A DNA stretch of 63,968 nucleotides, filler included, from Hausera hauseri (Eukaryota), in assembly GCA_046269625.1 (NCBI GenBank). It is 11 parts of 11 records of this genome, joined end to end, with 100 filler letters (N's around TTAATTAATTAA, not from the genome) between each part and the next. Parts side by side here need not be neighbours in the genome. Positions count along the whole stretch, not along the records: positions 37,283 to 42,850 come from JBJURY010229295.1; positions 42,951 to 47,438 come from JBJURY010485242.1; 9 more parts are not named here. One strand, written 5' to 3'. Under the pieces are notes generated by a model. That model made no database searches. It was not told where the DNA came from and was given only the letters and a program-made list of their open reading frames with translations. Below, piece by piece: positions 3,346 to 59,099 of the stretch; within the stretch, counting starts at the first letter, position 1, and each line of letters begins with the position of its first letter. Made by a program: the position numbers and the translations under genes.

Positions 3346-3348
3346 ATA

Positions 3349-25700: not shown

Positions 25701-27660
25701 GGACAACAGTTAAAGAAACCTTTACACAGACACGGACATAAATATTGCGTCTTAAACGACAAAAAGCAATGAGAATATTTTATATTACGAACGGAAAGGA
25801 AGAAACTTGATAGTTATTTCAAAAAGGCTGCAAACCAAAGTGCTAATGTCGAAACATGACTCATATTTAGCCGGACACATGTCCTGGAAGAAAACATTAG
25901 AAAGAATACTGAATAAATATTTCTGGCCCAGTATCTATATTGATGTGAAAAATTGGGTAAATGCTTGTGAAGTATGTGCAACTAAACAAAAGAAGACAAA
26001 AAATTACATGGCCGAATTAAAACCAATAAATGTGCCCGATAGGCCTATGCAAGACATGTCTATGGATATTGTAGGACCTCTTTCTACAACCCACAAGAAC
26101 AATAAGTATATATTGACTTGTATTGACAGATTAACTTATTTTGTCGAATTGATAGCGCTAATTGATTAAAAGGCAGAAACTTTAGCAGAAGCCGTAGTAA
26201 GAAAAATTATTTGCCTATATGGGCCCCCAGATCAGATATTCACAGATCGAGGAAGAAATTTCACAAGTGAATTATTCGAGAAAATCAGCAAGATATTTGA
26301 AATCGAACGATTAACAACTACCGCATATCATCCTCAGTGTAACGGAATGGTCCAACGGATGAATGCTACCGTCATGCGCATATTATCAACAGTAGTAGCA
26401 AAAGACCAGAAAGATTGGGACGAATTTTTAGAAGAAACTCAGTTTGCTATTAATACCACACCACATCCAGCGACAGGATTCACACCATTCTTCATGGTGT
26501 ATGGACGTGAAGCTGTGCTGCCCACAGACTTAAGGATGACGCCATACACAAACAATCTCGAAGATTTAGAGCAAAATTTTGCATAAGTGCTACAAACGCG
26601 ATTGCGAAAATGCTGGGAAATCGCCAAGGAATTATCCCAAGAATATCAAGAACAGTTTAAAAATCAGTATGATAAGAAGGCGAAACCGCATGATTTAGAA
26701 CAAGGAAGTTGGGTTTATGTACATTATCCAGTAGCCAAAAAGGGCATATCACTAAAATTAACTCGTACAGGCAGAGGACCGTACGAACTTACCAGAGTTA
26801 CGCCAACCACATTATATATCAACAAAAACGGAAAGGAAGAAGTCGTGTCAGTACAAAGAGTTGTCAAAACAGATATATGACCTAATAAACGTTACAATTT
26901 ACGCCAACGCGAGTTAAAGACTTTTTCAATAATCGCTAGACCAATATCGTACGTTCAGATAGTTTTAGCAATATCGCTAATTGCTTCTTATATTCCGAGA
27001 ACACAAACTTAATGGTAGCACGACGAATCTACGCTAGGAGATATATACGAAATTTGGAAGGGTGGATCAGGATTGGAGGCTATTGTAGCTGAAAAGAAAC
27101 CAACAGTCGAAGAAATTCAAAGACAAAATATAAGATTATTACAATCAGTATCAATTTCCTATTACTCGCCCAACTCCACATGCGTTGGATTTAAGGCGCG
27201 GAAACCACACCACGATTTTGGGAGATTTCAAATCTTCTTAGATAATGTAATAACAAAAGAAGAAAAGGATTGCGATTTCGAACCCGGAGATCATACGCAA
27301 TGCTGTGACATAGATTTCGGACGCACTTATAACCTTACCTATCGTCTGTACCTACCGAACTTATCTAAAATCTATAAAATAAAACCACCATTTCAGTTAG
27401 TTAGTCCTGTGTGGAACAAACATCATGGAATAAAACCGAATAAAATGTTACGATCTACCGATCCAGACATAAAACTATTAGACGAAAATATCCAGAGAAT
27501 TTCGGTTAATAATGCACAACAATGCGTCCAGGTGAGAACTCGGACAGAGCTAACTGTCAGTCGAAAAATTAGTATCACATTCGAAGCACCAACCCCGGAA
27601 TTATGATATTGTTCTATTCGCGCAGATGTACAACACACTTATTGCAAACTGCCTGTAAAC
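22713..27660 (+). mobile_element. Ty3/gypsy element: glycoprotein tail, linker, PR, RT, RH, IN, signal peptide/FN3-like ORF
   Basis: PFGKFLKAYEESRW (22713-22790), IDTGSEVS (about 23485), RFCIDYRALN..YLDD, YSATELK, SMDIVGPL, TAYHPQCNG, RYNLRQR, then hydrophobic IVLAISLIASYIPRTQT and ORF 27073-27606. Confidence 0.92.
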
Positions 27661-28757
27661 CAGGATGATAAGTTTAAGGTTTTAAAATAAATCTAAAAAT
27701 TCAGATAAATGAGTTTGGGTTCTGAAACCTCAAACTTATGCTTATTTACTTCAGTGCAAATAGCTCAGGATATTGTTTTCCCTGAGCCTAATTACTTTAT
27801 TAAGTCTTAAAAGCCGCCTGTGGGGTCGGCTAGAAATCAAATTTAGGTAGATGTGAATTCGATCACCAGGAGGGACACTGGTGTCGTTCCCAGATTTTAA
27901 ATGATTTTGTGGTTGTACGGTTCTTTATGACCGTAAAACAATAGGGCACCCTTTTAACAGATTAATAAGAAAACCTTATTACAATAACCTTAATTTTCTT
28001 TATTAAGATTTATATTTAGGTAAGATAGAAAAAGATCAATACTACTCTAAACAATATAATTAAACCAAAATCAATAAATAGTCTTAAAAATTTATAGAAA
28101 GAAACATAAAGAAAACAACCCAAATAAATAAACACTTACACGAATAATAGTCGACGTACATGATAGGAGAATCAAACATAAAACAATAACTCTGTTTTTC
28201 AATACCGTGGGTTTATATACTCCTCTTTTGTGATAAACTATCAAATTGTAATTCAAAATGAATATCTTGTAACATGAATAAATTGAAGGCAAATAAATGA
28301 ACAATTCACGGTAATGAAATAAAAAGACGGACAATTAAAATAAGTAAAATAAACTCAGACAGTTAATTTACAATTTAATGAGTGCATAATAAATATGATC
28401 AAATAAATATGTGCACAAAATTTGATGTTGTTTACACCGTCAGTGTTGAAAGAATGTCATTTAATCATTCAAGAGTCTGTAATGTCAATTCGAGAGTTTG
28501 TAATGTCAACAAAATGAATTTTTACTATATGAAAAATAATCATTTACTTTTTAAATAAATGACACACTTGTCAAGTTCTAAAATCAATAACGATAAATCC
28601 CAAAGTGAATTTGAATTTTTGAACCATACAAGTATTGTGTAATGAATTTGAGTTTTANNNNNNNNNNNNNNNNNNNNNNNNNNNNNNNNNNNNNNNNNNN
28701 NTTAATTAATTAANNNNNNNNNNNNNNNNNNNNNNNNNNNNNNNNNNNNNNNNNNNN

Positions 28758-30969
28758 AATACGCACTTGGTGAATCCATGTTGATTGACAGACTACCGTT
28801 CTTAAATGTGCTACTGATCGAATCGATCGCTGTTGAACTGGTAGCTGGCATTTTTTTCAGTCTGGTGATAATATGTGAATCTTTGGAGTCTTCGAATGAC
28901 GTAGATATGTCTGGTGGAGTGGAGTTCAGTTCAATGGATTTCCTTCTCGTTGTGCTAAATATGAAAAGTCCAAATTGACTGAATATTGTGTCGAAATTCG
29001 AACCCATAACCAATCGACAAATTCCAACCCAATAAGCCCCGAAAATAGCAATATAAATCATATATTAAACATCTCGAAATACTAACATCGTGTACGATTC
29101 GTCGACTGATGACTGAGACTCTCGATGTTTTTTTCCACCTTTATTATGATATTTCTCTTTCCGGCTAGTTTTGTCCGGTGAAAGAGGTTTGCTGGTCATC
29201 TCTGAAACAGATATTCGAAATGAAAAACGGCCGAACCAAAACAAAGAAGTCGCCCACCTGTCTCAAGAGAACTTATCAACTGATCATCACAGTGCTCATG
29301 AGCAATGATCAAATCGTAAATCCGATAATTAGCAAACAATCCCGTCTCCCTGTCAAATCCAACATCATTATACTGGCGATCAAACTCGGTAAATATCGAC
29401 ACAGACTAGAACAACGTTCGTCATTAACAAAAAACAACAGAAACAATTGCCTCATTCAACAATCGAACTGCCAACGAATAATAAACCGTATTTTTAGCAT
29501 TGTATCGTTTACAGTTCTCCATCATCAAATTGTAATCCGATCGAATTTGATCGATATTGATGTATTCGTATGATTTCAATTTTTTGCGCATTGTCGAAAA
29601 ATCCATGGGATTTTGGATAATTTTCGAATAGTTCGGTGCGATTAGTTCGGTAACGGGTTCGGCAAAGACTTTTGTCGTGTCCAATGTCTGGAAATATGCA
29701 GAACAAATGTCAACAAGATTATGATTGGTAATCGAATTCAGGGTTTGAGATGTTTGAAAAGATAACCGCCGAGCTCCCCCCCCGCGCTCCTCAATGAATC
29801 TAACAACCTGCAAATGATCCAATAATTCCTTCAACAATCCAAACGTAGGATGAAAAAGAATCTCGTTGATTTCCGTAAAATTCTTGAACAATTCCCGTTT
29901 CAGTTTCTCCCGTTTCCGACTTAATTCCGATAATAATCGAGCTTTCTCGAGATCCTGTCGCAATTGTTGCCAGAATTTCAAACTGGAAATCATTTCCGTA
30001 TTTCCTTTCTCAAATGACAGCTGAAATCGGCAACAATCATCAAACCGCATAACGACGGGAGCGGAGGAAACATACCGTTGGTAAGTGGGATTTAGATGAC
30101 GCGACTAATCGTCGAAGAAGTGGCACCCCGCTACGACATTCTCTCTTGAGTTTCCAGTATGAATGAATTCGATCCATGAACTCTGTTTTATGAGGCACAT
30201 CAATATTGGTACCGATTTCCTAAACGAACAAGTCACAAGCAACATCCGACAGAATTGCCTTCAGTTTATCGGGGGATATCACCGGGAAACACAAAGGTGG
30301 ACTGTAATTCCTTCGCTCGTCCAGCAGCTTACGAACAGCTTTGAGTTTCTTCTTCCGTTTAACACCCTTTTCCGAATTCACCTCATCATCGGAATTTGCA
30401 TACATACCTTGACTGACATCCTTAAACGGATGATGATATCGACTTAACAACCAATATTTATATTAAACGCACTGCAACATATCCCTCTGGGAAATGAATA
30501 TCGCAAAATGCACTTTTTCGGATTCCCGATGCACCACTCGTTTTATCACTCTGTTCTATTTTCATATAGAGACCGGCTTGTTGAGCACATGTCACATGAA
30601 ACGCTGTATAGCAATTGCTACGATGACACTGAATACAGGCACCGACATTTTTCTGTTTACACAGATAACAAGTCAGTCTCCACCTATGCAGGATCATGAA
30701 CAGCATTTCCAACACATGCCACTGCCTTACCTGGCCCCTTCTATCTTTTCAATGTCTTCAATGGGCTCGAGGAATATTAGATTAGCAAATGCTACTTCCG
30801 GTACCCATAATGCACACACAACATGAGCCCAACGGTTGTCGTTAGTTTGTTTCAATGCACCGCCTTTGTTCGGACATAAGCAACAATCGACCGAATGGCT
30901 CGGTGAATGAAGGCATTTTCGACATAGCCATTGACCCTCTGGTACGTATGGCACTCCATAGCATTCCTG
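28758..30969 (-). CDS. BRPF1: BRPF/peregrin-like PHD-PZP plus bromodomain gene, partial and spliced
   Basis: [56 protein letters not shown]; [22 protein letters not shown]; bromodomain [27 protein letters not shown] introns at 30684-30730 and 29688-29807. Paralog identity (BRPF1/BRD1/BRPF3) not resolved. Confidence 0.9.
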
Positions 30970-31099
30970 GTTAATGTAAGGTCAAGCGGGATATAAAATT
31001 ATACGACTGAAAGGCAGAAGATCACAGAACGTCGATTAATATCCTAAGTATTATAAAATTTTATTGATGTTAGCTCGTTGGGTGAGATCTATCGGTTCT

Positions 31100-31620: not shown

Positions 31621-32897
31621 TGTTTTACTTTTAGTTTGTGTAAAGTTTGTGTGTAATATGAGCCATTGCATGATCATCAGTGTATTAAATAAAAACACAG
31701 TTTTGTGTATTTTTGGTTTTCTAATGGGAAATTATTTATTCCGAAAGGATGTTATTATCCAAAAGTCAGAAATTTCAAGACAAGAGCAAATTCTTCAAAA
31801 TCTGAGTTTAGAAATGTTACGCTTCGGTGGACCCTTAACAATTCCCGTAAATACCAATACTAAAAATGCTTCAAAATTTAAGTTTTAAGTTATGACAGGC
31901 AAGGACTGTCGTTCTGGAGCAGTCAGCAATGTCTAGAGTGTTTTATTTGCAGGTACTGCATGCGACAGTATTTCTGCGTTTATAAACGAGTCTAATACTT
32001 ATCTATACATTCTACATATGATTTTAACCATAATGTCGTCGAACTTTCCACAAGGGACTAAATTTCCATTTCTGAGTTGATCGGAACACTGCATTATGTA
32101 CACGATTAGACGTGCGCACTTTGACCATTTCATGACGGAAGTAAAATAGAGTACCTTGTTAATGTTACGAAAAATAAACTGGCGATAATACAAAAAATTA
32201 AATTTTGTGACTACTGAAAGTTCAATAATTATAACATGAATTTAAGTCGAAATTTCAACACAATTAATTATTTAATATTTATTTAGAAAAGCAGAACAAA
32301 ATTTTTATCAGTCTGAGATTGGAAAACTTGTTTTACAAATTTGAAAAACCAAAAAATGGAAGAAACAGTTTTTCCCCCTTCTGACAAATACCACATTCGA
32401 TATTAATATAAACAAAGTCTTGCGCTATCAGAACTGATGTTCAAACACTGCAACATGTAGATCTGTGTTGAGGTTCACCCGGTATGTAGAGTAAACAATA
32501 GGCCATTATTAAAATAGCTGTTGTTTGGAATAGGTCTGAGGAAAATACTGCAGTTCGACAAACGTAAACCATTACAAACATGATATGTTTTATTAGATAA
32601 ACAACCATTTATGTAGAGAACAATTTTCTGCAGTGATATTTTGGTGTAAGTAAAGAATACGAATACTTGTGACTAAAAAGGAATAAAAGAATTTTATGAA
32701 AGGATAAATTAACAAAATTTATTTTTAAAATCATTGATTGAAATAAGTGCTACTATCAAAATGGAGATTTCTATTACGTCTATATTTATTAAGGCTCNNN
32801 NNNNNNNNNNNNNNNNNNNNNNNNNNNNNNNNNNNNNNNNNTTAATTAATTAANNNNNNNNNNNNNNNNNNNNNNNNNNNNNNNNNNNNNNNNNNNN

Positions 32898-35125
32898 TTT
32901 CTCTAGTATTATATAATGTTCTTCTAATGACGTCGAGAAAATCAACATATCGTCCAGGTATACTGTAGTTTGTTTGATACCTCTCAGTACTTTGGTCATC
33001 AGTTCTTGGAATGTACCCGGTGCTGCTGCTATGCCCAAAAGGCATCATGTTGAAACAAAATTGTCCCCGTTTAGTCGAAAAGGCTGTTCTCAACTTGGAT
33101 TCTTCCTCTAGTTCGACACGGTAGTATGCATTTTCCAGATCGATTGACGTGAAATATCTAGCCCCATATAGTTTATCCATCATTTCCATCATGTTCGGCA
33201 TGGGGTACGCTTGTCTTTCCGTGACAAGGTTCAACTGCCTAAAGTCTGGATAAATTCTGATATCGTTTTTCTCTTTCTTCCAGACGCAGATCATCGATGA
33301 ATTCCAAGGTGAATTACATTTCTTGATGATATTGTTTTTCCATAAGTTTTGAATAGTCTCCGATTTTGCTGTCTAAATTCGCTGAATGTCTATGCGGTTT
33401 GATGGTAATTGGTGCGCATTTGGTGTCTATTCTATGCTTGATCAATGTTGTACAGCCGATATCCCATTTATCCGCCATAAAGGCTTCTTGGTTCTTCCGT
33501 ACTATATCCAATACCACTGGGTTTTCGTTTATCCGCAGAATCTTCTTCGCTCTTTTAAATCCTTCTTCATTCGTCACTTTTCGACCAAATTTTGCTTCTA
33601 AGTTGCATACACCATACCTTTGTTCATCCCCAGCTTTATATCTCCAATCTAATTCGATTCCAAAAGTCTTTTGCAGTTTCATTCCTCCAATGATTTCTGG
33701 TGATATGTCTGTAACTACTATGAAAGTTACACGCTTCTGTACACTCTTGAGTTCCACATTTACGGACAGTTCACCAATGCCGTCTAGGGGCTACCATTTG
33801 CACAACGGAGCGTGATATCTGATTTCTCCAGCCGGATATCTCTCAATCTTTCGAAAATCTTCCTACTGATCACGTTCACCCGTGCCCCTGTGTCCTATAG
33901 GCAGTGTTCCCATCTATCTTGTGTCTGTACAATTATATCTGGCCGTCCTTGTAGTTTATCGTACGTGATCAGCTTTTCCAACAGTCCTTCAAGGGAAAAA
34001 ATTCCTCTTCATGGAGGCTCTCGTTTTGACTTTCTGCAATTCGTATTTCTTCGTTTCTGTCTCCACATGTTTCCTTCTTTATGAACCTCCGTAACTTTTC
34101 CTTTCTTTTTTCCTATATTTCTTCAATGCCTTGTCTCTTCCTTTGAATATTTTGGAGCCTTTGGATTTGTTTAATGTAATTCCCCGACTAGCTCCACTTC
34201 TGTCGAGGCTCTGCCTTTTGGGGTTGTCGACTCTGTGATTGATTCTTTATAGTCTTCGTCAATATTTGTAATGTATGCATGCCTGATGTTCGCCCTCTCT
34301 CCATGTCTATTGTGTCCATACGCGCACGTTTGAAATTGTCGGCATACGTGTTTTGTCATTTTCTACTCTTGTCCAATTTTGTATAGCATTCTTCTTCCCT
34401 GTGTCCTCTATTGTGACACTTATTGCATTTTATGTTTATGCAATTTCGTCTTCTGTGTCCTTTCTGACAGCACCAATAGAATATTATAGGTTTCCTTTCT
34501 GGGCAATGCCTGTTAATGTGTTCTTCTTTCCCGCAACCAAAACATCTTGGTGCATGTTGGAAGTTGCATATCCGGCTTGTATGCCCATCTTTCTGGCACG
34601 ACCAGCATTTCATCATCCTCTTTGCCCGCGTATTGTGCAGTTTGAAATCCCTCCTTTCTTGACTTGGTTTGTCAAATTTGTGCGCAACCACATCCCCATA
34701 ACTTAGTCGACCATCTTTATTGTATTCTCTGACTGCATTTATTTCTTCCATTTTTGTTGCCACTTAGTGAAATTACTGTATTTTCGCTTTCATTTGTTCT
34801 ACGCTTTTTTCTTCACTGAAATATATTTCTTTTCTCATCTCCAGGTCGTCACAACAGTGGATCATCAACTCCTATGTTAGAGTTTCCGCTGTTATTTTGT
34901 GGCTAAGGATTCCCTTCACCAACTGTTCGATTTTGTTGAAGTAGGCGGGCGGTTTGGCCTTATTTATTCTATAGTCCAATGGCTCTCGTACGATGATGCT
35001 CTACGGCGTTTTGTCAAGCCACTGCCAGCGAATTGTTTTTTGACCGATTCAGCGGAATTCGGGGCAGTGCTTTTTATTTCCAACAAGGCGTGTTCTTTCA
35101 ATGATTGTAAAATAGATTTGCTTTA
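32898..35125 (-). mobile_element. Ty3/gypsy element with four-CCHC-knuckle Gag, PR and RT
   Basis: CWSCQKDGHTSRIC, CFGCGKEEHINRHC, YWCCQKGHRRRNC, CNKCHNRGHREEEC; DTGARVNVIS; DFRQLN..MPFG..YLDD. Confidence 0.9.
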
Positions 35126-37282: not shown

Positions 37283-40060
37283 AGTATAACATAGCGAGAA
37301 TAGTAGTCAACCAGGGACAGAATGTATTTGTATCCTGAGTCTGAAGCTGGGAAGGGTCCCGGAGATATCCATTGAACACACTTCCATTGGTTTCCGTGCT
37401 TCTGGTAAGCTTCCTAAAAATGGTTTTGCATGAGATCCTCTATCTTTTCTAGTTGCACATATTTTACACGAACGTACCCATCCTTCAATATGCTTATTCA
37501 CTTGAGACCAATAATATTTTGCAGTTATTCGCTTCAAAGTTTTATTTAAGGACGGATGTCCAGCTAAATGCGAATCATGTTCTTGTAGCATGACAGCTTT
37601 AATGTCTGGAGTGGGTACAAGGATCAGTTTTCTCTGTCCAACTCTTAGTCGTAAAACACCGTTTTCAATTTCGAGGTTTTCTCGGTTCTTTTCATAAAAT
37701 TTTTGAATATGACTTGATACTGGATTGTGTAATTGACCGTTGATTAATCGTTTAATCTGAACAATAAAGGAGTCCTGATTCTGTATGGTCTCTAAGTTTC
37801 GTACTTGAATTTGACGTTGCTCTTGTAACATATCATTGATAATTTTCACATTCAGCTGTTTGTCATTTTCACTATCTACTGGTTTATAAACTGTGGCTGC
37901 AATCTTATCATATGGCATTCTCGAAAGTGAGTCGGCGTCCATGTTTTCTTTGCCGGGACGATATCGATATTCAAGATCATAATTCAAAAGTTTCAACTTC
38001 CATCTTTGGAGTCGATTTGATACATGCCTATTATCGGAACGTAAAGACAAAAGTGTCTTATTATCAGTGAATATTATGATTTTATGGCCATAAACGTAAT
38101 ACTCGTAATGTCGTAATCCATCACGAATAGCTAATAGCTCTAATTCAGTGGTTGAGTACTTTCGCTCGGCATTATTTAAGCTTCGTTTTCCGTAGGCGAT
38201 TACATGTTCAGTTGTTTCGTCTGGATTTTGTTGAGCCAATATATAAATAATTGCTTTTATGCTGGCGTTGGTTTTCAGGATAATTGGCAATGAAAAATCT
38301 GGGTATCTCAATATTGGAGCTGATACCATTCGTTTCTTGATCTCGTCAAAGGCATTCTGATTTTCTTCTATCCATTCCCATTTTTAATCCTTTCTTAACA
38401 GTTTATATTGAGGCTGACTAATTTCTGCAAAGTCAGTTATAAATGTAGCATAAAATCCTCCTAATCCTAACCAAGCCTTCATTTCATGGACATTGGTTGG
38501 TGGGGGATATTCTAAGATTTCGGATATTAAATCGGGACTAGTCGAAATTCCTTGGTTGGATACAACAAATCCAAGATATCTAACTTCTTTCTTGCACCAT
38601 TCGCATTTCTTCGGGTTTAATTTTAATTTAGCAAGTCTAATTCGATCGAATACTTCTTTTAATTCAGCTAAATGTGCGGTCCATGTTTTGGATGAAATGA
38701 GAATGTCATCAATGTATGATAATCCTCGTACTCCTTTTAGTACTAGGCGAATAAATTGTTGAAAGAAGGTAGGTGCTGTTTTCAGGCCAAATGGCATACG
38801 GGTAAATTGATAAACTCCGGTATGCGTTTTAAATGCAGTTACCCATCTGTCTTCTTCTGCTACGGGGATTTGCCAAAATCTACTTTATAAATCCAAGGTA
38901 GTAAAATATTTACAGTCTTTTAGTTCATCAATAATATCCCGAATTGGTGGAATTGGATAAGCATGATTTATTAGATGCTTGTTCAAAGTAACATAATTTA
39001 CACACAAACGATGTTTAGTCGTATTCGCTTTCTTGGCCATAACTACGGGAGAAGGCCACGGCGATTGACTTGGCTCTATAATTCCGTTATCTATCATCGC
39101 TTGAATTTGCTCTTCAACTTCCTTTTGGAGTGCTTTTGGAGGAGGGTACCATTTTGGTACAGGTTGTCGCAATAAATCTTTTTTTTTCCTGTTAAAGGGT
39201 CAATCATAAATGATAATTTGAATTTGACTAAATCAGTTTGTCCGATATCTGTTTCATTCTTTGCAAAAATGTCAAGATCCTCAAAAATGAGATCTGAGAA
39301 ATGTTGTTGATATTCTTCTGACAGGTTTTTCTTAGCTTTTGCGAGAACAACGTTTAATATATCTTCGGCATTTTCTTGTTCTGTGGTAGAAACGTTTGCA
39401 ACTTTGTTATCGTAATTTTCACGACGAGTCGTTTCAAGAGCCTGTCCAATTTTTGTTTTTGTGAATAACGTGACATATTTTGGTGTTGGATTTAAAACTT
39501 CCACTGGAATAGTTCCTCCAATTACATTGATGCAATAGTGTGGTAATATAAGTACATTTCGAAGAGTTTTAGGTACAAATTCAATGACACAGTTGTCTGA
39601 AAAATCTGTTCTAGCATGTATAACCATTCGAGAGTTGGGTGGTATTTTCTCAATATGTCCCACCCATATGTCTGCTTTGTCGTAATTAGGTGGTTTATCT
39701 TCATTATTTGGACAGATCAATCCTGATTGTAAGTTTATATGTACACCTTCCAATTTTCGTAACACATTCATACCCAAAATACATCTTGGGTCTAGAGTAA
39801 TCATCACATCAAAAGTTATCTTGATTTTCTGTCCACAAATCCATGGTTCACTTTTTCAATATCCATATGGTTTACTGCATTGTTGGAAAGCAGAAGTAGT
39901 ACCGGGTGAGTCTTTCGTAGCCAATTTTATTTGGAATTGTAATTCTTCTGGAATTGCATGTTTTGCTATTAACGCAACGTTGGCTCCAGTGTCCACCATA
40001 GCATTTAAATCTAAAGAATCAAAATGAACTGTTGTATGAGGTCTATTGTCTCGTAATAGT
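37283..40060 (-). mobile_element. Ty3/gypsy pol (PR, dUTPase-like linker, RT, RH, IN N-terminal part)
   Basis: AMVDTGANVALI; RLCVNYVTLN; MPFGLK..YIDD; KYSTTELELLAI; HDSHLAGHPS..C..C; SMDISG. Confidence 0.95.
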
Positions 40061-40749
40061 TCGAGGAATGTAAACACATCATTGTGATCATCAATATATG
40101 GTTCCATCAGAGTATAACTAGACGAACAATGTCTGTTGGTACTGTTAGATAAAATGGCGGTCAAACTTTCTTGTGATTGGATGTCGATTTCTGGTGTTTT
40201 GTTTTTATCTTTAAGTCCAGTTAAGTCTGGATGGCAACTAACATGCTTTGATGTTGTATATTGCTTATTGTTAAGCTCATAAGTAGCTAAATGGGATTTT
40301 CTGTCTGATTGAGTTTTTATTGGTCTAGTTACTTGATGATAAGGTATTGAGGGTAAAGTACCCATTTTGGGTGAAACCGGTAACGTTACTCGATTGTTTT
40401 CCATATTCCTTGTAATGATGGATTGCCGGATCTCATCTTGAGAGTATGTTGGCAAGGTTCGTAATTTTATGTATTCTTCTCTTTTCGCGTAAGGATCCGT
40501 TAAATCTGTTAAGTTTGGTAGTTTACAAATAGGCATTGTTTTATTATCATATGGTGTAGCAGGTAATTTATGTTTATCCTTTTTCTTTGGCTTCATAAAC
40601 TTGAATTTTCTTCTCGTATCCTTGGGAACTCTTGTCGTAGGATAATACTTAGGAGCATTACTGTCATCTGAACTTGATGAAGTGTCCTTAGGAAGTTGTT
40701 TCTCTAATTTATAGTCAACATGCTTTTCTAATTTGCCTCGCCATTGTTT

Positions 40750-42601
40750 CTTATGATAGGCCTTTATAAATTTGCCAAATGAGGAAAATAGAGCTCCTAT
40801 TATGCTCACTGACAGTCCCGTTAAATTATAAATCTCATAGGCACTTAATACAGAATTGATGCAGACTTTCAAGGTTTGTATAGTGAAGTATTTGGCCAGA
40901 AAACCTGAAGTTACTTGGCCAAATTTCGAGAATCCTCCCTACATTTTATACCACAAGTTTGAAACGATTTTAGAATAGGCGTCAGGTGTCCATAACCGAT
41001 CCCATTTTCCTTTTCCGGCTGTGTCATCTATTACTCGGTGTATTCCGCGATTTACTATTTGTTCTCTCTGTCTGGGATATGCTAAAAATTTTACAAATGA
41101 ATCAATTTCCTTTTTACTATATAGTGCTGATTTGGATACGTCGGTAAACATGTTGGTTTCAATAGCATGTTTTAAATTTGTTATCTTTAATTTCTTTGTT
41201 TTTTCTTTGACTCTGTAACGATCTGGTAGTCTAACCCAAAGGTCTTGATTATCATACTTGATAAACGGCTTGTTTAATGCTGAACAATTCTGAATTTCCG
41301 TAGGTATTGTATGAGGTGCCAGGAGCACTCTAGTAATAGGCTGAACGTATTGTATTTCCTCGTTATATTTAACGGGCATTTCCGAATAACATGAAGTGCC
41401 GGTAATCGACGGCAATTTTAATCGTTTACATTTGTAGGTATATAACACTTTTCCTAGGACTCTGCCTTGGATTTCTTCACCGAAAAAAGGGTTATCGTAA
41501 TCATCCCTGGATTGGATGCATAAATGGCCAAACGATTTCTTAGTGTTTCGAAATTGACTTTACAAAAATTTTGGATTGTTTCGGAATATATTTCTTCAAT
41601 TGTTTTGTGGGTTAGATAGAATAGAAAGGCATCTCGATTTGCGATATAATCGGCAATATTCACTAACTGAGCTCTAGTAGTGGGAGAATTACCGGCTCCT
41701 TTGATTTCGCTTTCTGACATAAAGTAATTGTCGTAATTCGTAATGAATACTTGTTGTCCACATTTTGTAATGGAATTCTGTTGTATAAATTTAACTCCTC
41801 TTTTGATATCCTTGGATATTAAAATCTTATGCGATTTTACTTCTAGAATAACTTGAATATTGGAATGCTCGAAATTAGTCTCATAGTGGCGGGCATACCG
41901 TTTTTCTGTAGTGACATTGAATTTTCCTTTTCTGATTTATACTAATGTACAATCGTAACTTGTGGGAGGTGTCCACTCTATCGCGGATGTGCTAGTATGA
42001 CAATGTCCTGTTTGTAACTTACAAAAAGATGCGTCTGCCATTGTATTTGTGCTGGTTTCGAAGACGTAGGTATTATCCTTAATTTCAACCTCGTACTGGT
42101 CATGCATTCGATACCTGCTTCGATGCCTTTTCCGGTGTCAGAATTTCCTCCTCTACAATTTCCTTTTTCATTCTTATAACCTGCAATCCATTTTTTTTAT
42201 TGAGTTACTTGTCCTTTTATGGCGGTTAATGGGATTTCTCCCCATTTAAGTTGCTGGGTTTCTCCCGCATCTCTACAATATGTTGGATTTACCGTCACAT
42301 ATTTAGATATAATGGTAGATTTAATGTAAGAGTCGTGGTGTAGATGACCGCAATGAGAAATAGTTCGGGACACGCGTAGAGAACATTCCAGTCCTTTTAT
42401 GTGCAACATAGTTTGATCATAGTAAATGTATAAGTTCTGCGTTTGGGTTTCCAATTTTCTCGGAAGAGCGTGCGGGTATGACTGAAGATCCATCAATGAT
42501 TAGTAACTTCCTTCATATATTTGATTGCAATTATAAGCTAATATTGTTCCGATCCTTTTAAAATTGGAAAATAACACCAATAAAAGTAACATAAGTTGCA
42601 T
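40750..42601 (-). pseudogene. Chuvirus/Monjiviricetes-like (class III) envelope glycoprotein, in frame upstream of the protease
   Basis: Signal MQLMLLLLVLFS..AYNC; CSLRVSRTISHCGHLHH; GNCRGG; C..C..W..P..C; NIADYI..IY..C..L.NRL..NP; CYSEMPV..VQPITRVL..C..P..W; ALYS..ID..LAYP; LW..GFSKFG..SGFL..INSVLSAY..G.S..IIGALFSS. These follow the conserved order of chuvirus-type G. Confidence 0.82.
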
Positions 42602-43063
42602 AAATATTCCATTGGACTTTACACCGTCACGTTTCTGAATTTCTTCCTGTATTTGACTGGTCATTTTCTCCGTAACAATGGGAACAATCTCTTCATGAGA
42701 TGCATTTAGAGTAATTTCTTGAATAGCTTTTTCTATATTTGTCGGTTCTGTTTCCAGTAAATTTTCGTTTTCATTGCGTAGAAATAAGTCACTCCATTTT
42801 CCATATTTCGGAATTATTGATTTGCTATCATGAATTATTTTACCAGTTGTNNNNNNNNNNNNNNNNNNNNNNNNNNNNNNNNNNNNNNNNNNNNTTAATT
42901 AATTAANNNNNNNNNNNNNNNNNNNNNNNNNNNNNNNNNNNNNNNNNNNNGACACTGAACAAAATACGTTATTGAAATATACAACAAAGCAATATACAAC
43001 GGATAATTGTCAATGATTGTCACATTAACTGAACTAAACTGAACTGATTGTTTATACGTGCGT

Positions 43064-46000
43064 TTATTTCAGCTGCCAATTTCCGTACGCCCAACTCCTA
43101 TTTCTCCCTACCCACTTTCGCTTATCATCGTTACATGACAAAGCGACTTTCGCACTAGATATTGTCCACAAATGGTGCTCAATTGATCGGATGATCTTTG
43201 GAGACACAACAACCACTGATTATCCTCCTTCGGCTGCTGCTGCTGTTTCTTCTTCTTCATATATACGGCGAAAATCACCATGGCTAATTTCCGTCTGCTT
43301 CAGTTGGACTCCTTTTGCCTGCATTTCGGTCCACAGTCCGTCAGAAGACTGTAGCTGTTTGGGCGTAGGAATATCCATTTCCGATACTGAACCCTGCCTT
43401 CACTTTCATCCTTAAAACAGCCGATTTTGTTGGTGATTGCGCTGCTGTACAACGGATGACCCGGTGGGTAGTTGGACGTGTCCAGTAATCCATCTGACGC
43501 ATTTGCTGCAGTAGCTGTTCGCGATTGACATTTTTCAGCCGCAGGAAAAACTGTTTGTGTCACCGGCAATTATACTAATATCACAGCCGTCAAACATTTG
43601 TCGGTAGCGTGCCAAGTCGCGATACTGTGGCTTATACATCTGTAACTTGCTCAAGTCCAATACCACTTGTCCGATGTAACTTGGTCGGTCCAGTACGACG
43701 ATTCCTCTGTTTAACAGCACCGCAACCAATCCATCGACAATGTGCATTGACCGCTGAAACTTCACCTTACTCGTATACGTGACCAACCGCTTTTCGCTAT
43801 TGCATAGGCGTACATTGAGCCACTTTTTCAGATTCTCCACTGTTTTTCTGTACAGAGAATTGTTTTTCAGCTTGTAGTAGTCCTTTTCGAACTTTTTTCA
43901 AGCTGCGCCTCGTTTCTCCGAATATCCGTCTATGTACGCCTTGAATATGGGAGCCTGAGCAAATCGGATTGCACAATGCAGCTGTGTGACGCGTGCACCG
44001 TGCTTTATGTAGAGCTGCAGCAGATGGCAATGGATCACATAATTCAGCTTCGATTCATGCGTCATGAGCAGTTTCTTTACTTTTGAGACTGGTGGACATT
44101 GGTTAAATGTTGAGACCGGTAAAGCATCCAAAACCTTATGCAGCTCATCTGGTACCAAGAGATCGACCTCCATCAGGTATTCGACTGAGTCTACCATGTC
44201 TGCTTGTGGCAGATTTACCATCATGTCGTCCGGTCTTGTCTGTCGACAAACCATTCGAATGAACCGTACGGCAAGGGTTGCGAAAGCGCCCAGCCGAACA
44301 GGTTATAAATATAAATATACATCGTGATGTGGTATTGGTAGCACGGACCTGATGCTTGTTGAGAAATGTCATGCCGCCGCGAATACCAACATCAAGCAGC
44401 AGGTACATTTCCGGGTCTTGCAGCAGCTCAATGTCTCGATCCAGTGACATTAGAGCTGATGCCCAACTCATTTTCGGTATGGAATAGAAGTTGAGTGGCT
44501 CCAGCCTATCTTCAGCCAACGCCTTAGCTCGAAAAGTTTGGAGCATATCGGCTAACAGGTACGCATCCAATTTCAGATAGTGAAGCATGTACTCCAACAT
44601 GTTTCTGCAGCCGACTCTGCCCAAAATGATTGCGGTCTGTGATATTCTTCTTCTGTGTTACGGGGCCATTAGGTTGGTAATTAGTCTGTCGTCTGGAGCC
44701 GCTCGTACAATATCGAAAGTCATACGGAAATATGCCTTTGCTACGTGCAATATGTGTGGAGAACTGAGTCAATGTTAGCGTCACATCTGGCAAGGCATTT
44801 ACTAGTTTTGCCAGAGATTCATTGAGAAACTGCAATGAATCAAGGAAGCGTACCTGGAACCGGTTAATACGAACAGACAGTGACAGGTATTTCTCCATCG
44901 TAGTAGGAATTATGGACAGTTTCCAGGGTGGAAATCCGTTTATGGCCCATTTTAAAATATGGTGACAGTCATAACCCCGGAAGTTATGAAAAATCACCGG
45001 CACAAATGGCCGCACACGCCTTGCCAAATTGCACGAATTGCACGCTACTTCGAGATATCGACCGGTAAAATGGTCGTAACCCGGTATGAGCCGTTCCTGT
45101 GCATTAAACGGTAATATTTTCTGGCACAGGTTACATTCACCTTTGATTGCAAACGTCAGGCGTTCATCTTCATCTATCCACATTAATGGTTTACTAATAT
45201 TTCTACTGTACCAGAGTGCAATTTCCGTTTCTACTATTGTTTCCAACTGCTGCAGGAAATCACATACACTGTTTCAATTATAGAAAACGTAATACTGCGG
45301 TTGTCCGGCAGCTTTTATTGGTACTAGCAATATACCGACGGCAATTGGAACGTGCTTTTGATCGTATACATTGTGTTGTGGTAGAATTGCTTCGATATCG
45401 GCATACACCACATATTCGGGACTGTCCGTTTTGGACCAGTAACTGAATCTCAACTCCTTTTTGACTGGCATAACATACATTGTGGTTCCTGACGAAATTT
45501 GCCTACACAACGCCACATGCTTTGCCCATGTCTCATTTGACCGAAATCCATGCAAACACACGGGACACCATTTGCACCGCACACACTTTTTGGTGAACTG
45601 GTCATGCTCCATGTTCAACAATCTGTCCAAATTGGTCACGGCCGTGTAATGAAACTTTTCTTCATTCTCCAACAGCAACAAATTTACTGGGCGTCCAATT
45701 GGATTTTGACTGCGGTAAATTATGTCCACTTGAAGATTCATGTAAATTCCCTCATCCACCGGTATCTCTACGATTGTGTTGAACCAAAACACGTTGATTT
45801 CCATTGTCGGATTACGACGTCCAAAGGCCGGAATGGTTTTGAGTTTCATCGGCATCCAACACTCGTCGTAGTCCAATTCTGAGAAATCCTTACTGTACTG
45901 CTTTAAACAGTTTGCACGATGTCTGGGCACTTTATCATATTCCAATATGACCAGAATGCTGTAAATAAAGCAGTATTCGTCCTTAGTATTTTGTACATTC

Positions 46001-46919
46001 ACTACCGCCAGATATTGCTTCAAGGATGCAGGTGAGGTGTGAATGAATGTACAGACAGGTAAATCATGTCACTCGTCTTGGTCACAATAAAACCGAGAGT
46101 GACAATCTTTACAATTCGCCAACCACCGCCCTTTCCGGTGTAGTTGGCCATATTTTCGTCAAGCTTTTCGCCTACATCAGCAATAAAATCCTTAGAGTAT
46201 GGTACGGCTTGAAGTGACAGGTACCATTGTTTCCTGTCACCATGCAGATTTTCAAATTCTGCAAGTGCATACATTGCACTTTGCAGTGGTGTTGTTGGAA
46301 TTTGGCCACCTCTGATTCCAATTGGTTACGCCCATTAGCGGGTACATCCTTCAAATGCGTTGCTGTTTTTGCAGACATGTCCACCTTCACGTCCATGTAC
46401 GATCTGATCAGGTCGTGCTAGACAGTAATGGTCGGTTCACGTTCCTGCTGCTGCTGCTGACTTCTGTAGTTTTGAAAGTATTCGTCAAGGCTTGCTGATG
46501 CTTGATGTTTCCTGCTGCTTCTTGCTGCGTCCATTAATATTTCCTTTTTGGACCTTTGAAACTGGTTCAAATGGTCCCTGTGGTTGTTGTAGAATTGTTC
46601 ATAGTTGACTTGCGTCTCAACTATAGAACAATCGGGACATACATAAGCCAGTTTACCGTGCACTGTTGTGGTGCCATAGTACTGCTTCATTGGACTATGG
46701 CAACTATTAGCGTCATGTACCTTACAAGTACAGTAAAGTGGGTATATGTAGCAATGCACATGCATCATTATGCTTGTGCATCTCATAAAAGTCGGCGTAC
46801 GGACATGTGTTTTGAATAAAATACACGGGGCACAGGTACGTGTCCTTGGCCACTGAATAATATTTGGCCATTTCCTTGTGGCATTGTCCACCCTCATGTA
46901 TGCGGGAGACGCAATACAT
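43064..46919 (-). pseudogene. Near full-length divergent pPolB with HNH insert (second family)
   Basis: GGGWRI, VVNVQNTKDEYCF, VVYADIEAI, DHFTGRYLEVACNSCN, FHNFRGYDCH, KGIFPY, GIRGG, PSYIGQVVLDLSK..MY, AGDTNS, IGCFKDE, KAKGV, DDKR..AYG. Confidence 0.92.
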
Positions 46920-47059
46920 GGGATATTGTGAACATTTCTAAATGATAAACAAATTAAAGTAAATGTTAAACTAAAAACAAATAAAAATGTATTAATTATA
47001 AATAAATAAATTTAGCTACAATACACCGTAACTTAGCCTTAGACGTCGTCTAAATCGGC

Positions 47060-50739: not shown

Positions 50740-53700
50740 CGCAGAAACCGCCGAGCGTGTTGCCGGACCTGGTTATGGAGGTTAGGCTGCCCGGGGATCG
50801 CCACGCCGGCGCGGTGGGGCTATGCGTCGGGCTATCGCGCCAGTGCCGTCCGAGCCCCGGGCGTGTTTACGTCACGCGCCACAATGCCCACCCGTCGCTG
50901 ATACCCCTATCTTTCCTTCCATTTTTTAATCAACTATAAAAACATACATACACACATGCAAGAACACACCACACAAAACAACATATCTATCACCACCTTG
51001 TTAACCTTTTAGGCACTTCTACCTTTTTCTTAACTTACAGCAATTTTATCATCCACAACTTTTATGATCTTCTCCTTTTCAGACAGACTTTTTTTTATTC
51101 AAATCAATTTCAAAATTATTGGCGGCATGAACTTGTTACCTTCGATCAACATTACTGAAAAACCAAAATCTATTCCGATATTACGCTGCGCCGATAAAAT
51201 CACACCTTCTGGCCTCCCTTTTGGCCACCACTGTACTGAATTCTTTATCGACAGTCAGAACTGAAGCCAAACCTGGCTTCAATTTCATTGCCTCTGGCTC
51301 CAATCTGCAAACATTACCAAATCTGTTCCAAAGGCCCATAGTCTTTTCTACTATTTACCAAATTCAATCAAAACTCGAATACCCAATCTTCTACAAATCT
51401 TCGAACATTCTAACCCTTACAAGGAGCTATACAACGCTATTCTTAGGCTTACAGAGCCTTCTTTAGATTCTGTTATCCAGCTCTACTTCAGTCATAACAC
51501 CCTAGGCAATCAAAAGCCCTCGCAATTCTTACAAATAGCTTTAAATAACTTGAAAGCACTTGGAATAAAACAAGAACACAACGCAGATATTTAAGACGTT
51601 ATTTTCTCCACGCTTTACCCTTACAAATTAGGGGTCCGTTAACCGTGGTTGAAGAGTCTTTAAACCTCAATAAATTAACTAAGTTAGCTGATAAATCATA
51701 TGAATTATTACAAATGCACACTACCCTACTTAACTCTACCACTATCACACCAAACTATACACAGCGAAACGCATTACAACAACAAATAACTCAATTAAAG
51801 GCAGACAACAAGGCGCTTTTAGAAACCATTAACAGCATAAACAATAAGTTAAGCCAACTGACTCTTTCAAGACAAAACTTCCCTGGTGCTGCCCATTCTG
51901 ATAGACCTCCACTGCGCAACAGACGATCGCCATCGCCCGTACGATTGTCTATTTGTTATTATCACCACAATTTTGTAAACAACGCACACAAATGTTGCAT
52001 TGGGTGCAAATTCTTTGCACCTAAATTTAAGTCGGGAAACAGCATCTGCATCTACCATTCTAAATTCAACACTAAGGCTATAAAATGTTTACCAGAATGC
52101 AATTTCAACTCACATGAGAATCGGCAATCTTCAACTAACAAACAAAATCAAACACAGCAAAAAAACTAATAACGCCGCTAGAGTTATTGGCTACCTCTAA
52201 AAAAGGCTGAACTTTACAAAATTACAGACGAAACACAACATATGCAGTCTTTACGTTGGAGGCAACTGTTGTTACTCCAATAAAACATAACATCAACTTC
52301 CTCATAAACACTGGAGCAGCTGTCTCTCTGCTTCCTCCTGAATATGAGGTACATAACAAAACAGACTTACACAAAAAGTTATTCACTGCATCAGGAGCAG
52401 CACTAAATACCTTTAGCACTACCAACATCACTTTTACATTACCAGGCAGCAAAATTACATACAATTGGACACTTACAGTTGCCAATGTCCAAACTCTTAT
52501 TTTGGGATCAGACTTCCTGTCCCATTACCAACTACTGGTGGATTGCAGACGATGTTGCTTGATTAACTCAAAACAATTTGAACAATCTAATCAGGTGAAT
52601 ATCATTTCGACGACCGAACGGACGATCACTGGTCGTAAACCTGCTCTTAAAAAATCACATTAATTTAAAGTATTATTATAATCATCCCTTATTTAGAGAT
52701 TACTATAATGCAATTGACAAGTATGATAATGCCAACTCTCTGATATCTTTCGCTAACGAAACCGCTCGTAACACCATTTTTAATTCCACAATATTGGACC
52801 AAATTCCACCTAGTCTTGATAGTACAACTTTTTCCCTAACTGACGCTAAGCAAATCGCAACATCAGCATCACCGTCAACCATTTTATCATCACTTCCACT
52901 GGAGTTGCAATCCTATGTATCTTCTTCTTGCACTCGTTTGTTGCAGAAAGACAAAGCTTTTAAACCAGTCATGCACACTTTTCATCATATTGCTACAGAA
53001 CACGAGAGACCCATACGACAAAAAGGACGACCATTATCCTCACATCGCAGAAAGGCAGTTGAAGCCGAATTTTCATAACTGCAACGCTCAGGCATCATTA
53101 GGAGATCTAAATCTGCATGGGCTTCGCCACTATACCTTGTCCTAAAAAACGACGGATCTTTTCGCCCATTCGGTGACTACAAGCAATTGAATCTAACCAC
53201 AACCATGGACGCCTATCTTTTGCCTCTAATCAGTGACATTTTACATAGACTCCACGGCTCCACCATTTTCTCAAACATCGATCTCCATAAGGCATACCAC
53301 TAAATCGCTGTAGCACCCGCAGACATCCCAAAAACGGCAGTAACAATTCCTTTCGGACTTTTTAAATGTCTATTTATGCCATTTGGCTTAAGCAGTGCAG
53401 CTCAAACCTTTCAGAAGCACATAGACACCGTCCTCGCAGACCTAGACTTCGCATATCCGTAAATCGGTCATATTTTAATTGCCTCTTCATCTTCTAAACA
53501 AGGTACTGAGCACCTACGCATCGTTTTCAAACGACTTCACCAAAACAATCTCCAAATAAACTTCGCAAAATGTTCATTTTTTAAACAAAAAGCAATTTCC
53601 TCGGACACATTATTACTCCAACTGGACACGCTCCACAGCAAGACCGTATCACTCAACTGAAAAACGTTCAATTACTACGGACAACTTCAGAAATGCGTTC

Positions 53701-53784
53701 CTTCCTGGGTACCTTGCATTTTGTACACGAATACGTACCACATTGTCCAACTTTAACCGCTCCATTCGCTACCTTAAGTTCTGG
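50740..53784 (+). mobile_element. CsRn1-like Ty3/gypsy element, copy 3 (UBL-gag, PR, RT)
   Basis: INFKIIGGM; LGNQKPSQFL; double CHCC; FLINTGAAVS; WASPL; MPFGL. Confidence 0.9.
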
Positions 53785-53884
53785 NNNNNNNNNNNNNNNN
53801 NNNNNNNNNNNNNNNNNNNNNNNNNNNNTTAATTAATTAANNNNNNNNNNNNNNNNNNNNNNNNNNNNNNNNNNNNNNNNNNNN

Positions 53885-56800
53885 CGCCCTTGGCTGAGTT
53901 GAAAAACTTTAAAGAAAAGATTGAAAGAAAATCCCGAAAACAAACAGCATAATTTGCCTAATAAGTTTTTGTGCGTTCAAGACGTTGTACTCCTTCGTTG
54001 TTTAGTTGTCTGCTATAGATACTGAAAATAACTCATTTGCGATGTACCTTCACCGTGGTGTCCGACCGCTGGTAGTGTTTGGCAAAAGAAACATTAGCTT
54101 TAGTATGATTGAGTGTTGTGCCTGGGGAAGGTAATATAAAGGGTGGCGAAGAAATAATTGTAGATAAATTATTTCAGTTTTCTGCTATAGTTTTGTAAGT
54201 TGATAAGCTGAGAGATGAAGTAGAAATAGGCGAAAGAATAGAAATGATGTGTGGAGCAGAAGTGATAAAATTAGTAGTAGATAAAAATGCATAAATGGAG
54301 GCAGGAATTAAATTGGTAGATGACTATGTAGGCACAGTAGCGGGAAATGCGAAATGATGTGTGGTAGACTGGGGAATTAAAATCGAAGTAGAGGTAGGCA
54401 CAGGGGTTAGGAAAGAGGATGGTGTTTCGTTTGGTTAGGTATCGTCGACGTAAAAGGCGGGTTTCTTTTCTTCTTTTCCGTCTTTGAGGATAATAGCGTT
54501 TTGCGAATGTAGCTGCACTAATTTATAGGGTACTGTACTGTGGCTGGAAACCACATGGTGTCTTATTTTTTAACCATACAAACTTTGCCAAGTATAAGTC
54601 TTCTGGTATATAAGACTTGTCATTATGTATGAGCCTGTAAAACGAATTCTTGTTGATTGTAACGAAGTAATCCTGTGCTGCTCGTATCCTTTCGTCTGTA
54701 GGAGTCTCTTCAAGAGCCGCTAGTTCAAACAGTGACTGTACAGGGGTTCCGAATAAAGCTTCCTTTGGTGAGCATCCTGTGGAAGTAGACGGGGTATTCC
54801 GCCAGCCAAGCAGAACGAACGGAAGATGAGTAGTCCAATTGGTGTTGGACTGTGCAAGAATTCTGAGTGATGTTTTTAATGTTCGATGAAAACGTTCGAA
54901 AAGCCCTTTCGATTGGGGATGATAAGGTGTTGTATGAATGTGGATTATACCCAATCGGTTGACTAGGGATATAAACATATTAGACTCGAATTGCGGACCT
55001 TGGTCTGAGATGATATAACAAGGAGACCAGAACCTACTAATCTACGTACGAATGAAAGTATCGGCTATTGTGTCAGTGTTTGTGCTCCGCAGTGGGATGG
55101 CTTCCGGCCATCGTGAGAAACGGTTCATCATGGTCAGAATAAATTGGTGACCGTTGTCTATTGGAAGAGTTCCGACGATATCAATATGTACAATTTCAAA
55201 ACGTTATGTGCAAGGGAAGCGGTATAATGGTAGCTTTAATTATTTGATGGTTTTATATTTCTGATAAGCCACGCACTATTTAACCCATGCTTGCACATCG
55301 AAGCGCATGGACGGCCAAACTACCTGAAGTTGAAGTAAGCGAAAAGTTGCCTTGGCACCAGGATGATTTAATGAATGTACACTATCAAATGCTTGTTTGT
55401 GTAAATATGGGGCAGGAATTATTTTAGAATTTTCTGGTTTGGACGTATCTAAGGCCACGCCGTCAACGATATGGTGAGACTTGAACGACTTGAGTATGTC
55501 TTGGGATGGCTGATTTTCTTGCAGTTTTTTCTAAGTAAAAATAGGCGAAAAATTGATTGAACCGACTAATCTAGATAGGAAATCGACAACTAGATTGTCA
55601 ACACTGTCAATGTGTTTAATGTCAAAGTTAAACGTGGATAAATATGAAATTTGTCTTTCTTGTCGAGTTGAAGAATGTTTCATTGCTATTATATTAATCA
55701 ACGGTTTGTGATCAGTCTGTGTAACAAAATGACGAGCTGTAAGTAAGTAAAAAATGTCTTAAAGCAAGGACTACTGCCAGAAGATCCCGGTCGAAAGTTG
55801 AATATCTAGTTTCAAGTGGCGTTAATTTTCGGGAAAAGAATTCTAGAGGCTGATTTTCGCCTTTATACAACTGGTGTAATACGGCGCCTACTGCGATGTT
55901 TGATGCATCTGTGGTCAAAATCAAATCAGCGTCAGGCTTAGGAAATGCTAGTATTTCAACAGTCTTTAGTCCTTCGCGTAGTCTATCAAACTTATTAAAC
56001 AGTTGTGGTGTCCATTGGATTTTCTGGTGTTTTTGTACTCCGCTTAAGTGTGCAAAAGTGCCGTGAGTTCTGAACAATATTGGATATATTTGCGCACGAA
56101 ATGCAAGGTACCAAGAAAACTGCGCATTTCTGTGGTTGTCTTAGGTAGTTGGACGTTTTTAAAAGTCTCAACTCGATCATGCTGAGGTGAATGGCCGCTT
56201 GAGGAGATAATATGTCCATGAAAATTAACGCATTTTTTGGAAGAAGTTACATTACGCTAAGTTGATCTGTAGGTTGAACTGATTAAATTGTTGGAAGAGA
56301 AATCGTAGGTGTTTCTCGTGTTGTTTGACAGAAGAAGAAACATCCAAGATATCGTCAGTATATGGATGCGCAAAAGGAAAGTCTGAGAGGATTGAGTCGA
56401 TGTGTCGCTGAAAAGTCTGCGCAGCATTTCGAAGACCAAAAGGCATGTACAAATACTCATAAAGACCGAAAGGTGTGGTAACTGCAGTTTTCTCGATGTC
56501 TTCCGGTGCCACAGGAATTTGGTGGTAAGCTTTGGCTAAATTAGTTGTTGAATAGACTGTAGTAGCATTGAGCCGATGTAATATGTCTTTGATTAATGGT
56601 AATGGATACGCATCCATTATGGTTAAAGTATTAAGCTGGCGGTAATCGCCACATGGTCGGAAAGATCCATATTTTTTTGGACAACGTGGAGAGGCGAAGA
56701 CCAAAGGGATTTAAATCTACGGACAATATCTGATTGTTCCATTTCAAAACATTCCATCTCTACTGCCTGCCTGCGACGCCATGACAATGGACGAACCTTT

Positions 56801-59008: not shown

Positions 59009-59099
59009 ATATTTTATAGGGTGGATTCTTAGTAAGTTATAACCGTGTCTTGTAATGGCATAACAGACAATTTCTTTTTTACAAAGAAGTATCTATCAC

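Follow-up and report, generated by a model that had tools for sequence, protein, structure and literature searches.

The contig at positions 37283–42850 of the window (JBJURY010229295.1, Hausera hauseri) carries on its minus strand what we consider, with a probability of about 85%, to be a dead genomic copy of a Ty3/gypsy retroelement that is multicopy in its flatworm host and follows the published GAG-ENV-POL plan (Burro-like, with a gB-type env), and to belong to a divergent sub-lineage. The window, the whole stretch of 63,968 nt that was analysed, strings together unrelated contigs through N-TTAATTAATTAA-N spacers, and physical linkage is confined to this one contig, which ends on both sides within the element and contains neither gag nor LTRs. 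The env-before-pol arrangement of the contig is confirmed as genuine. The original prediction took the layout to be undescribed, but it has already been published (Arkhipova and Yushenova 2019; Chary and Hayashi 2026), and novelty of the layout as such is not supported.

The order along the minus strand is G-PR-RT-RH-IN (Table 1). The frame through 41448 is open from 41559 to a stop at 39096–39094 and, as had been claimed, is interrupted by exactly two internal stops, at 40941–40939 and 39858–39856; it spans 821 codons, and shuffling the bases of the contig 200 times yielded at most 244. A stop-free ORF of 360 codons (39856–40938, minus strand) holds the last piece of G together with the protease match (PF00077 RVP, E 2e-4, 21.9 bits vs a cutoff of 20.7), and the VDTG motif lies at 39996–39985. 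The frame of the G signal, said to be open from the contig edge, indeed runs from 42850 to a stop at 42502 on the minus strand, and the internal signal expected near 42601 comprises a hydrophobic core at 42607–42569 followed by AYNC at 42538–42527. Damage omitted from the original prediction includes three further stops within G (42502, 42199 and 41939), two frame changes in G (near 42100–42150 and 41470–41490), and, in pol, frame changes near 39200 and 37359 as well as stops at 38887 and 38386, with pol then truncated inside integrase by the contig end. Pfam places RVP, RVT_1, RNase H and the H2C2 integrase domain after PF24664, which bears out the predicted Ty3/gypsy pol in PR-RT-RH-IN order, with RT and RNase H of gypsy type. 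A BEL/Pao origin was rejected, as only Ty3/gypsy-type pol families matched and Pao-type protease, RT and RNase H did not.

Table 1. Features of the element in window coordinates.
Feature	Position	Strand	Evidence
Frame upstream of signal, 81 codons, acidic, cut by contig edge	42608..42850	-	No Pfam match, no gag
Internal signal sequence of G; cleavage would fall just before YNC	42536..42607	-	KD up to 1.76
Ectodomain of class III fusion glycoprotein (chuvirus/gB-type), interrupted by 3 stops and 2 frame changes	40942..42535	-	PF24664
Membrane-proximal part of G with its two hydrophobic segments, past stop 40941	40786..40938	-	PF24664 543-646
Hydrophilic linker G-protease, in frame	40051..40785	-	Shared stop-free ORF; covered by contigs of both runs
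Retropepsin-type protease, VDTG 39996-39985, stop 39858	39760..40050	-	PF00077 RVP
PR-RT spacer, place of Burro's reported dUTPase-like domain; frame change near 39200	39200..39759	-	Alignment to relatives
Reverse transcriptase, YIDD 38716-38705, stops 38887 and 38386	38387..39154	-	PF00078 E 5e-25
Connection and RNase H, Ty3/gypsy type	37979..38383	-	PF17919 E 2e-29, PF17917 E 8e-28
Integrase zinc finger and initial part of core, cut by contig edge	37283..37618	-	PF17921 E 6e-17

The fusogen is of the chuvirus/gB class, as predicted. PF24664 (Monjiviricetes_fusion) matches the window G in four successive, collinear pieces covering profile positions 63–129, 244–363, 370–540 and 543–646 of 653 (E 1e-5, 1e-6, 3e-19 and 3e-11, respectively), and the structure model of a relative, P0007 (pLDDT 71.9), whose G is 26% identical to that of the window, has structural matches to chuvirus G (E 9e-42) and HSV-1 gB (E 4e-13). 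Judged by alignment, the window copy belongs to a divergent sub-lineage of the published kind, with a G that is 24–29% identical to those of 10 relatives over the matched length while retaining 13 of the 14 cysteines common to them. The signal pattern, in which A-[YF]-[DN]-C comes after a hydrophobic stretch, recurs in all nine relatives examined, and the two hydrophobic segments of G (KD only 1.07 for the first and 1.42 for the second in the window copy) have KD values of 1.8–2.4 and 1.0–1.6 in 11 relatives. At the contig edge, a G-x-W stretch resembles a motif of P0002 and P0007, and a Bcl-2-like profile scores E 5.7 there, in seventh place among 1475 peptides.

The fusion of G to protease recurs in relatives. 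Of 36 matches to a G piece, 14 were domain-scanned and 13 hold PF24664; in nine of these 13 the chain continues past G into a protease, in three of the nine with RT-RH as well, and two of four further cluster members scanned have G-PR-RT-RH-IN. In all, five intact relative proteins carry G-PR-RT-RH in a single chain, and in the window copy the G end and protease have a common frame; the predicted one-polyprotein organization is supported. One of the G matches, P0021, was a false positive (zinc ribbon/NMD3). The element family is multicopy: in run X1, 8100 contigs cover all 30 bins of the element at 80–100% identity, G and linker included, and no contig among the matches listed spans the G anchor to the protease. 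A word-index search of longer proteins with the G-end/linker/PR piece as query returned none among 3142 candidates, and a pol search limited to chains of 628–2000 aa, longer ones being excluded, gave only ordinary gypsy pols among the matches listed, with PF24664 in none of the 120. These data also bear on a chance neighbourhood, in which a chuvirus-like endogenous viral element would lie beside an unrelated gypsy pol, or the contig would be an assembly chimera. The assembly is fragmented, and PMC10084718 describes chuvirus glycoprotein insertions next to gypsy fragments as common in arthropods. Nevertheless, chance insertion is rejected as largely refuted and has almost no probability left, given that no stop separates the G anchor from the protease and that the same fusion is seen in the relatives; moreover, many divergent contigs cover the linker just as they cover the rest of the element, and in a G tree of 24 rows the window G is nearer to polyprotein Gs than to stand-alone Gs, being sister of the G-PR polyproteins (SH-aLRT 97).

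Whether G is joined to Gag as well bears on a further alternative, that translation of G begins separately, at an in-frame ATG at 42601 or on a spliced message, giving an ENV-POL product separate from Gag. There is an in-frame Met inside the signal, ENV-GAG-POL and gapped ENV-POL layouts also exist (PMC13524379), and the gag that had been proposed upstream is absent from the contig. Relatives support that proposal: they extend 130–870 residues upstream of the signal within the same chain, and three (P0003, P0005 and P0018) have CCHC knuckles there. With these extensions, and with the codons upstream of the window signal open to the contig edge, we consider a separate start very improbable.

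RT phylogeny agreed in part with the G tree. The window RT and that of a sister contig join the G-bearing polyproteins in trees of 35 rows (support 83) and 21 rows (75/78), but in a quick tree of 114 rows the window RT falls apart from them. The smaller sets were hand-picked from the 114 rows and include the window's nearest rows in the larger tree, for which 14 of 126 BLAST-matched proteins had been dropped for short coverage; no named Burro or errantivirus reference sequence is in the trees. Placement of the RT with the G-bearing polyproteins is weak. An alternative is that the same G family became joined to another gypsy pol lineage by recombination, which would make this a second independent env-before-pol pairing in flatworms. 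This would fit the position in the 114-row tree, the exclusion of the window RT from a tight clade of five G-bearing RTs (support 99–100), and the finding that published GAG-ENV-POL elements are not monophyletic (PMC13524379). Against it, the window copy takes the same sister position, with similar inner order, in the G tree and in both smaller RT trees, the PR-RT spacer, which has no Pfam match to dUTPase, can be aligned to P0003, P0008, P0037 and P0040 at 24–26%, and the sister contigs probably share a membrane protein with the relatives (see below); we regard recombination as improbable. As for the host, BRPF1 exons in the window group with flatworms, sister to Neodermata (100/97), in a tree without nematode rows, of which there were none among the 120 matches listed, and we infer a planarian host. 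ESM Atlas matches to the host exon were generic eukaryote PHD.

Returning to the preferred reading, a decayed GAG-ENV-POL element, an active member of the family would translate a single reading frame into Gag-[linker]-G-[linker]-PR-RT-RH-IN. Gag would be made in the cytosol, after which the internal signal would send G into the ER, with signal peptidase cutting before YNC. One membrane anchor would then stop transfer and leave the linker and protease cytosolic, whereas the second hydrophobic segment (KD 1.0–1.6 in all), if membrane-spanning, would add a crossing and so make the protease luminal. The element protease would release the Pol enzymes and trim the G tail, and G trimers in the budding membrane could allow particles to fuse with adjacent cells or with stem cells of the germ line. 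The window copy itself is unable to make these proteins. A single-polyprotein layout would imply Gag, Env and Pol in equal amounts, and the chain would have to pass through the ER membrane two times ahead of the protease.

In four full-length relatives, integrase is followed by a second type I membrane protein that has a weak fibronectin-III-like motif, and two sister contigs in the window probably carry it too. A five-row profile of this protein gave no significant match against PDB; six of the eight matches (E 0.15–2) were to chains of Tie2, EphA2 and pikachurin. The displayed Tie2 alignments match at an L-x-P-x-T-x-Y stretch, which we take to be typical of fibronectin III repeats. An ESM Atlas search returned no usable match, and a single-sequence fold reached a pLDDT of only 31.8. 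No prior account of the protein was found in the literature searched, Burro figures and Repbase entries lying outside its scope, and the main text of PMC13524379 does not contain the words 'polyprotein', 'in-frame' or 'fibronectin'. With the layout already published, newness is apparent only in this accessory feature of the relatives. The protein is an unproven candidate partner of the fusogen. We entertain, as a doubtful extension, that the flatworm elements are viruses encoding two glycoproteins within a single polyprotein, with a gB-type fusogen before the protease and a post-integrase type I FN3-like attachment or trigger partner, the window lineage being an early-branching compact branch. 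If true, this would address a question raised in PMC13524379 (section 11), namely the route of cell entry for errantiviruses that have only gB, and if the partner is conserved it would supply a concrete model of entry for the gB-type group.

Among known systems, the window copy combines a class III ENV directly upstream of POL, as in gB-type errantiviruses, with a Ty3/gypsy backbone. Mosquito BEL/Pao elements with a chuvirus glycoprotein, reportedly described by Dezordi et al. in 2020, share the fusogen family but differ in their BEL/Pao backbone. Nematode endogenous retroviruses (NERV), of chromadorean hosts, are said to have one continuous gag-env-pro-pol ORF, reportedly described by Sacco et al. 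in 2022 in J Gen Virol; the host here instead groups with flatworms. PMC13524379 cites NERV for a flipped ENV-POL order, and 26 of its 36 nematode rows, all of those examined, are Chromadorea. Burro of planarians, as presented in Arkhipova and Yushenova 2019 (PMC6431247), has a mononegavirus-like env that lies between gag and pol in the same frame. These giant gypsy elements (Burro/GYPSM1) share with the window copy an in-frame env upstream of PR-RT-RH-IN in one polyprotein, an env related to mononegavirus fusion proteins, a flatworm host, the PR-RT spacer and many decayed copies. Some relatives have Burro-type extras, namely a Bcl-2-like domain before G in P0007 and ankyrin and several proteases in P0037. 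The window copy, in contrast, is compact between G and RT, with a 284-residue linker and one protease, and its visible part, from G to integrase, shows no giant polyprotein with accessory domains (no ankyrin, BIR or MATH by Pfam) and no repeated proteases. Chary and Hayashi 2026 (PMC13524379) describe GAG-ENV-POL elements with gB-type env in flatworms, nematodes and bryozoans, and their HSV/gB-type Platyhelminthes C1a group, with six Schmidtea elements of 1–215 copies, has the same order, env class and host phylum. By eye, its ENV rows show the same motifs as the relatives here. The C1a elements are intact, whereas the window copy is decayed and more divergent; it adds to the published group a divergent, compact, decayed flatworm member, with G and RT branching in step across the group.

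The element occupies a single contig of the window, in which N-TTAATTAATTAA-N spacers separate a series of short contigs, and its reality is well supported. The long minus-strand frame with two stops described in the original prediction holds up, at 821 codons open against a shuffle maximum of 244, and the chuvirus-type fusion glycoprotein (G) was recovered as four collinear pieces of the Pfam Monjiviricetes fusion glycoprotein family PF24664, covering positions 63–646 of the 653-position profile. The last of these pieces lies within the same stop-free ORF as the VDTG protease motif, and RT, RNase H and an integrase zinc finger (Pfam) come after this retropepsin motif, confirming both the proposed common frame of the G end and protease and the placement of G before protease and RT. 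The internal signal proposed for G corresponds to a hydrophobic stretch followed by AYNC, an arrangement found in 9/9 relatives examined. G and pol are each interrupted by two frame changes, along with four stops in G and three in pol, so this copy is dead.

Coordinates of the features in the window
Feature	Coordinates	Strand
Element with G before protease, contig	37283–42850	minus
Its hydrophobic stretch before AYNC	42607–42569	minus
Its long open frame	41559–39094	minus
Its VDTG motif	39996	minus
Second decayed gypsy element	22713–28657	plus
Its cysteine-containing ORF after integrase	27019–27606	
Related gypsy family, 3′ part, contig	1636–6805	minus
Its integrase	6439–5696	minus
Its ORF after integrase	5667–4615	minus
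Its hydrophobic segment	near 4606–4550	minus
Its ORF beyond the membrane segment	4479–3349	
Its two CCCH zinc fingers	2668–2345	
BRPF1/peregrin host gene	29805–30975	
Decayed gypsy elements without G matches	17143–22268, 32842–34763, 51549–59092	
Decayed polymerase B-like pieces	7403–13191, 43300–47011, 62126–63236	
ORFs resembling ankyrin repeats and a DDB1-type C-terminal piece by eye	14379–14897, 16309–16827	

Contigs from two public runs cover 30/30 bins of the element; in one of them, X1, 556 of 8100 contigs match at ≥99%, 1356 at 95–99%, 2882 at 90–95% and 3306 at <90%, depth of such contigs not being equal to copy number. Run X1 may itself derive from the source organism. At the two RT stops nearly all contig depth disagrees with the window, and these lesions are therefore private to this copy. 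No piece spanning G anchor to protease was present among the run contigs listed.

With its breaks filled by X, the element's G shows 24–29% identity to its relatives and keeps 13/14 conserved cysteines, and in a 24-row tree it is sister to them on a long branch (SH-aLRT 97). The structural model of one relative (P0007) matched G proteins from chuviruses and related ones (best E 9e-42) as well as herpesvirus gB (best E 4e-13, TM ~0.35–0.45). In RT trees, the five polyproteins that carry G make up one firmly supported clade, and our element's RT groups firmly with that of the second gypsy element (98–100 support); this pair joins the G-bearing clade weakly, with 83 in one tree, 75/78 in another and not in a third. 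One origin of our element's lineage and the G-bearing polyproteins is likely. The second element, also decayed, starts ahead of its protease with basic, hydrophilic sequence that resembles the G–protease linker, G itself being absent from its contig.

Searching with the G piece matched 36 proteins, of which 14 were scanned: 13/14 contain PF24664, with the protease after G on the same chain in 9 of these 13 and RT-RNase H too in 3. In the cluster, two larger members (P0037, 4844 aa; P0040, 3003 aa) run from G through protease, RT and RNase H to integrase; P0037 also carries ankyrin repeats. P0003, P0005 and P0018 have CCHC knuckles ahead of G, and two to seven protease motifs per chain were found in P0002, P0004, P0005, P0006, P0008, P0037 and P0040, some of the aspartic-protease motifs of P0008 and P0037 being located after integrase. 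P0003 (HBK71150.1), a full animal-type retroelement polyprotein (CCHC-G-PR-RT-RH-IN), is deposited under a Flavobacteriaceae metagenome bin and is most likely host DNA within it.

Domain order, shared frame, fusogen class and single-chain relatives were all observed; the steps that follow draw on how internal signals and retropepsins are known to behave. Gag would emerge in the cytosol, the internal signal would direct G into the ER with cleavage before YNC, a membrane anchor would bring the chain back to the cytosol, and the element protease would free the enzymes. Topology is the weak step, as the protease would be cytosolic only if the second of two membrane segments stays on the surface: every relative has one strong segment (KD hydrophobicity 1.8–2.4, 11/11) and then a weaker one (1.0–1.6), and those of the decayed copy score 1.07 and 1.42. 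There is no frameshift between G and RT in the five long relatives, so that one chain would yield Gag, G and Pol at equal levels.

BRPF1, the only clear host gene among those examined, has introns of ~42–61 bases and in a 22-row tree groups with flatworms, where eight neodermatan rows form its sister group (100/97) and Macrostomum branches outside; its closest protein among the matches listed is a UniParc record (78%). By sequence, the host would be a free-living flatworm, probably a planarian. The gene lies on a different contig from the element and so bears on the assembly, not on linkage. Elsewhere in the window, the polymerase B-like pieces resemble, by eye, protein-primed DNA polymerase B genes of polinton-like elements.

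The lead worth following lies outside the element's coordinates. The four full-length relatives (P0003, P0008, P0037, P0040) all finish with a second signal sequence, followed by a ~200–330-residue ectodomain, a membrane segment and a tail. Each contains one C-x2-L-x-P-x-T/D-x-Y-like stretch, which occurs neither further upstream in these proteins nor in 120 ordinary gypsy pols (147,629 residues), the pattern having been fitted after the sequences were seen. The related gypsy family in the window likewise encodes, after integrase, a signal, an ectodomain with the same FN3-like motif stretch and a membrane segment, followed by an ORF without Pfam match and the CCCH fingers. Among 1475 window peptides, a profile from the four relatives puts its ectodomain ORF in first place (E 0.015). 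The integrase nearest to its own belongs to the second gypsy element, the RT sister of our element, and that element has a similar cysteine-containing ORF after integrase. Against PDB, a five-row profile gave sub-threshold matches only (E 0.15–2), mostly to FN3-containing receptors. Our element's own 3′ end, where such a protein would lie, is missing. The second membrane protein is not described in the literature searched (Grohme 2018, Sacco 2022, Repbase and the Burro figure lay outside this comparison) and may be new; a conserved partnership with the fusogen we consider rather unlikely.

The original prediction's impression that the layout is undescribed did not stand: PMC13524379 reports GAG-ENV-POL elements whose ENV is of gB type from Nematoda, Bryozoa and Platyhelminthes, nine of them from flatworms, citing Sacco et al. 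2022 for the nematode case. The layout is therefore known in the flatworm host group. The nematode elements are reportedly single ORFs. BURRO1 is transcribed and under piRNA control according to PMC8532177, and PMC10084718 gives further context. Our element works like the giant planarian Burro elements; its visible part is compact, with accessory domains not demonstrated there, and strict Burro membership is thus not established. The Bcl-2-like stretch reported before G in Burro is paralleled in P0007 (residues 9–70, immediately before the G signal; weak Pfam match, E 0.00096) and P0002 (near residue 111, directly upstream of the G signal). The element is an additional member of an already known group.
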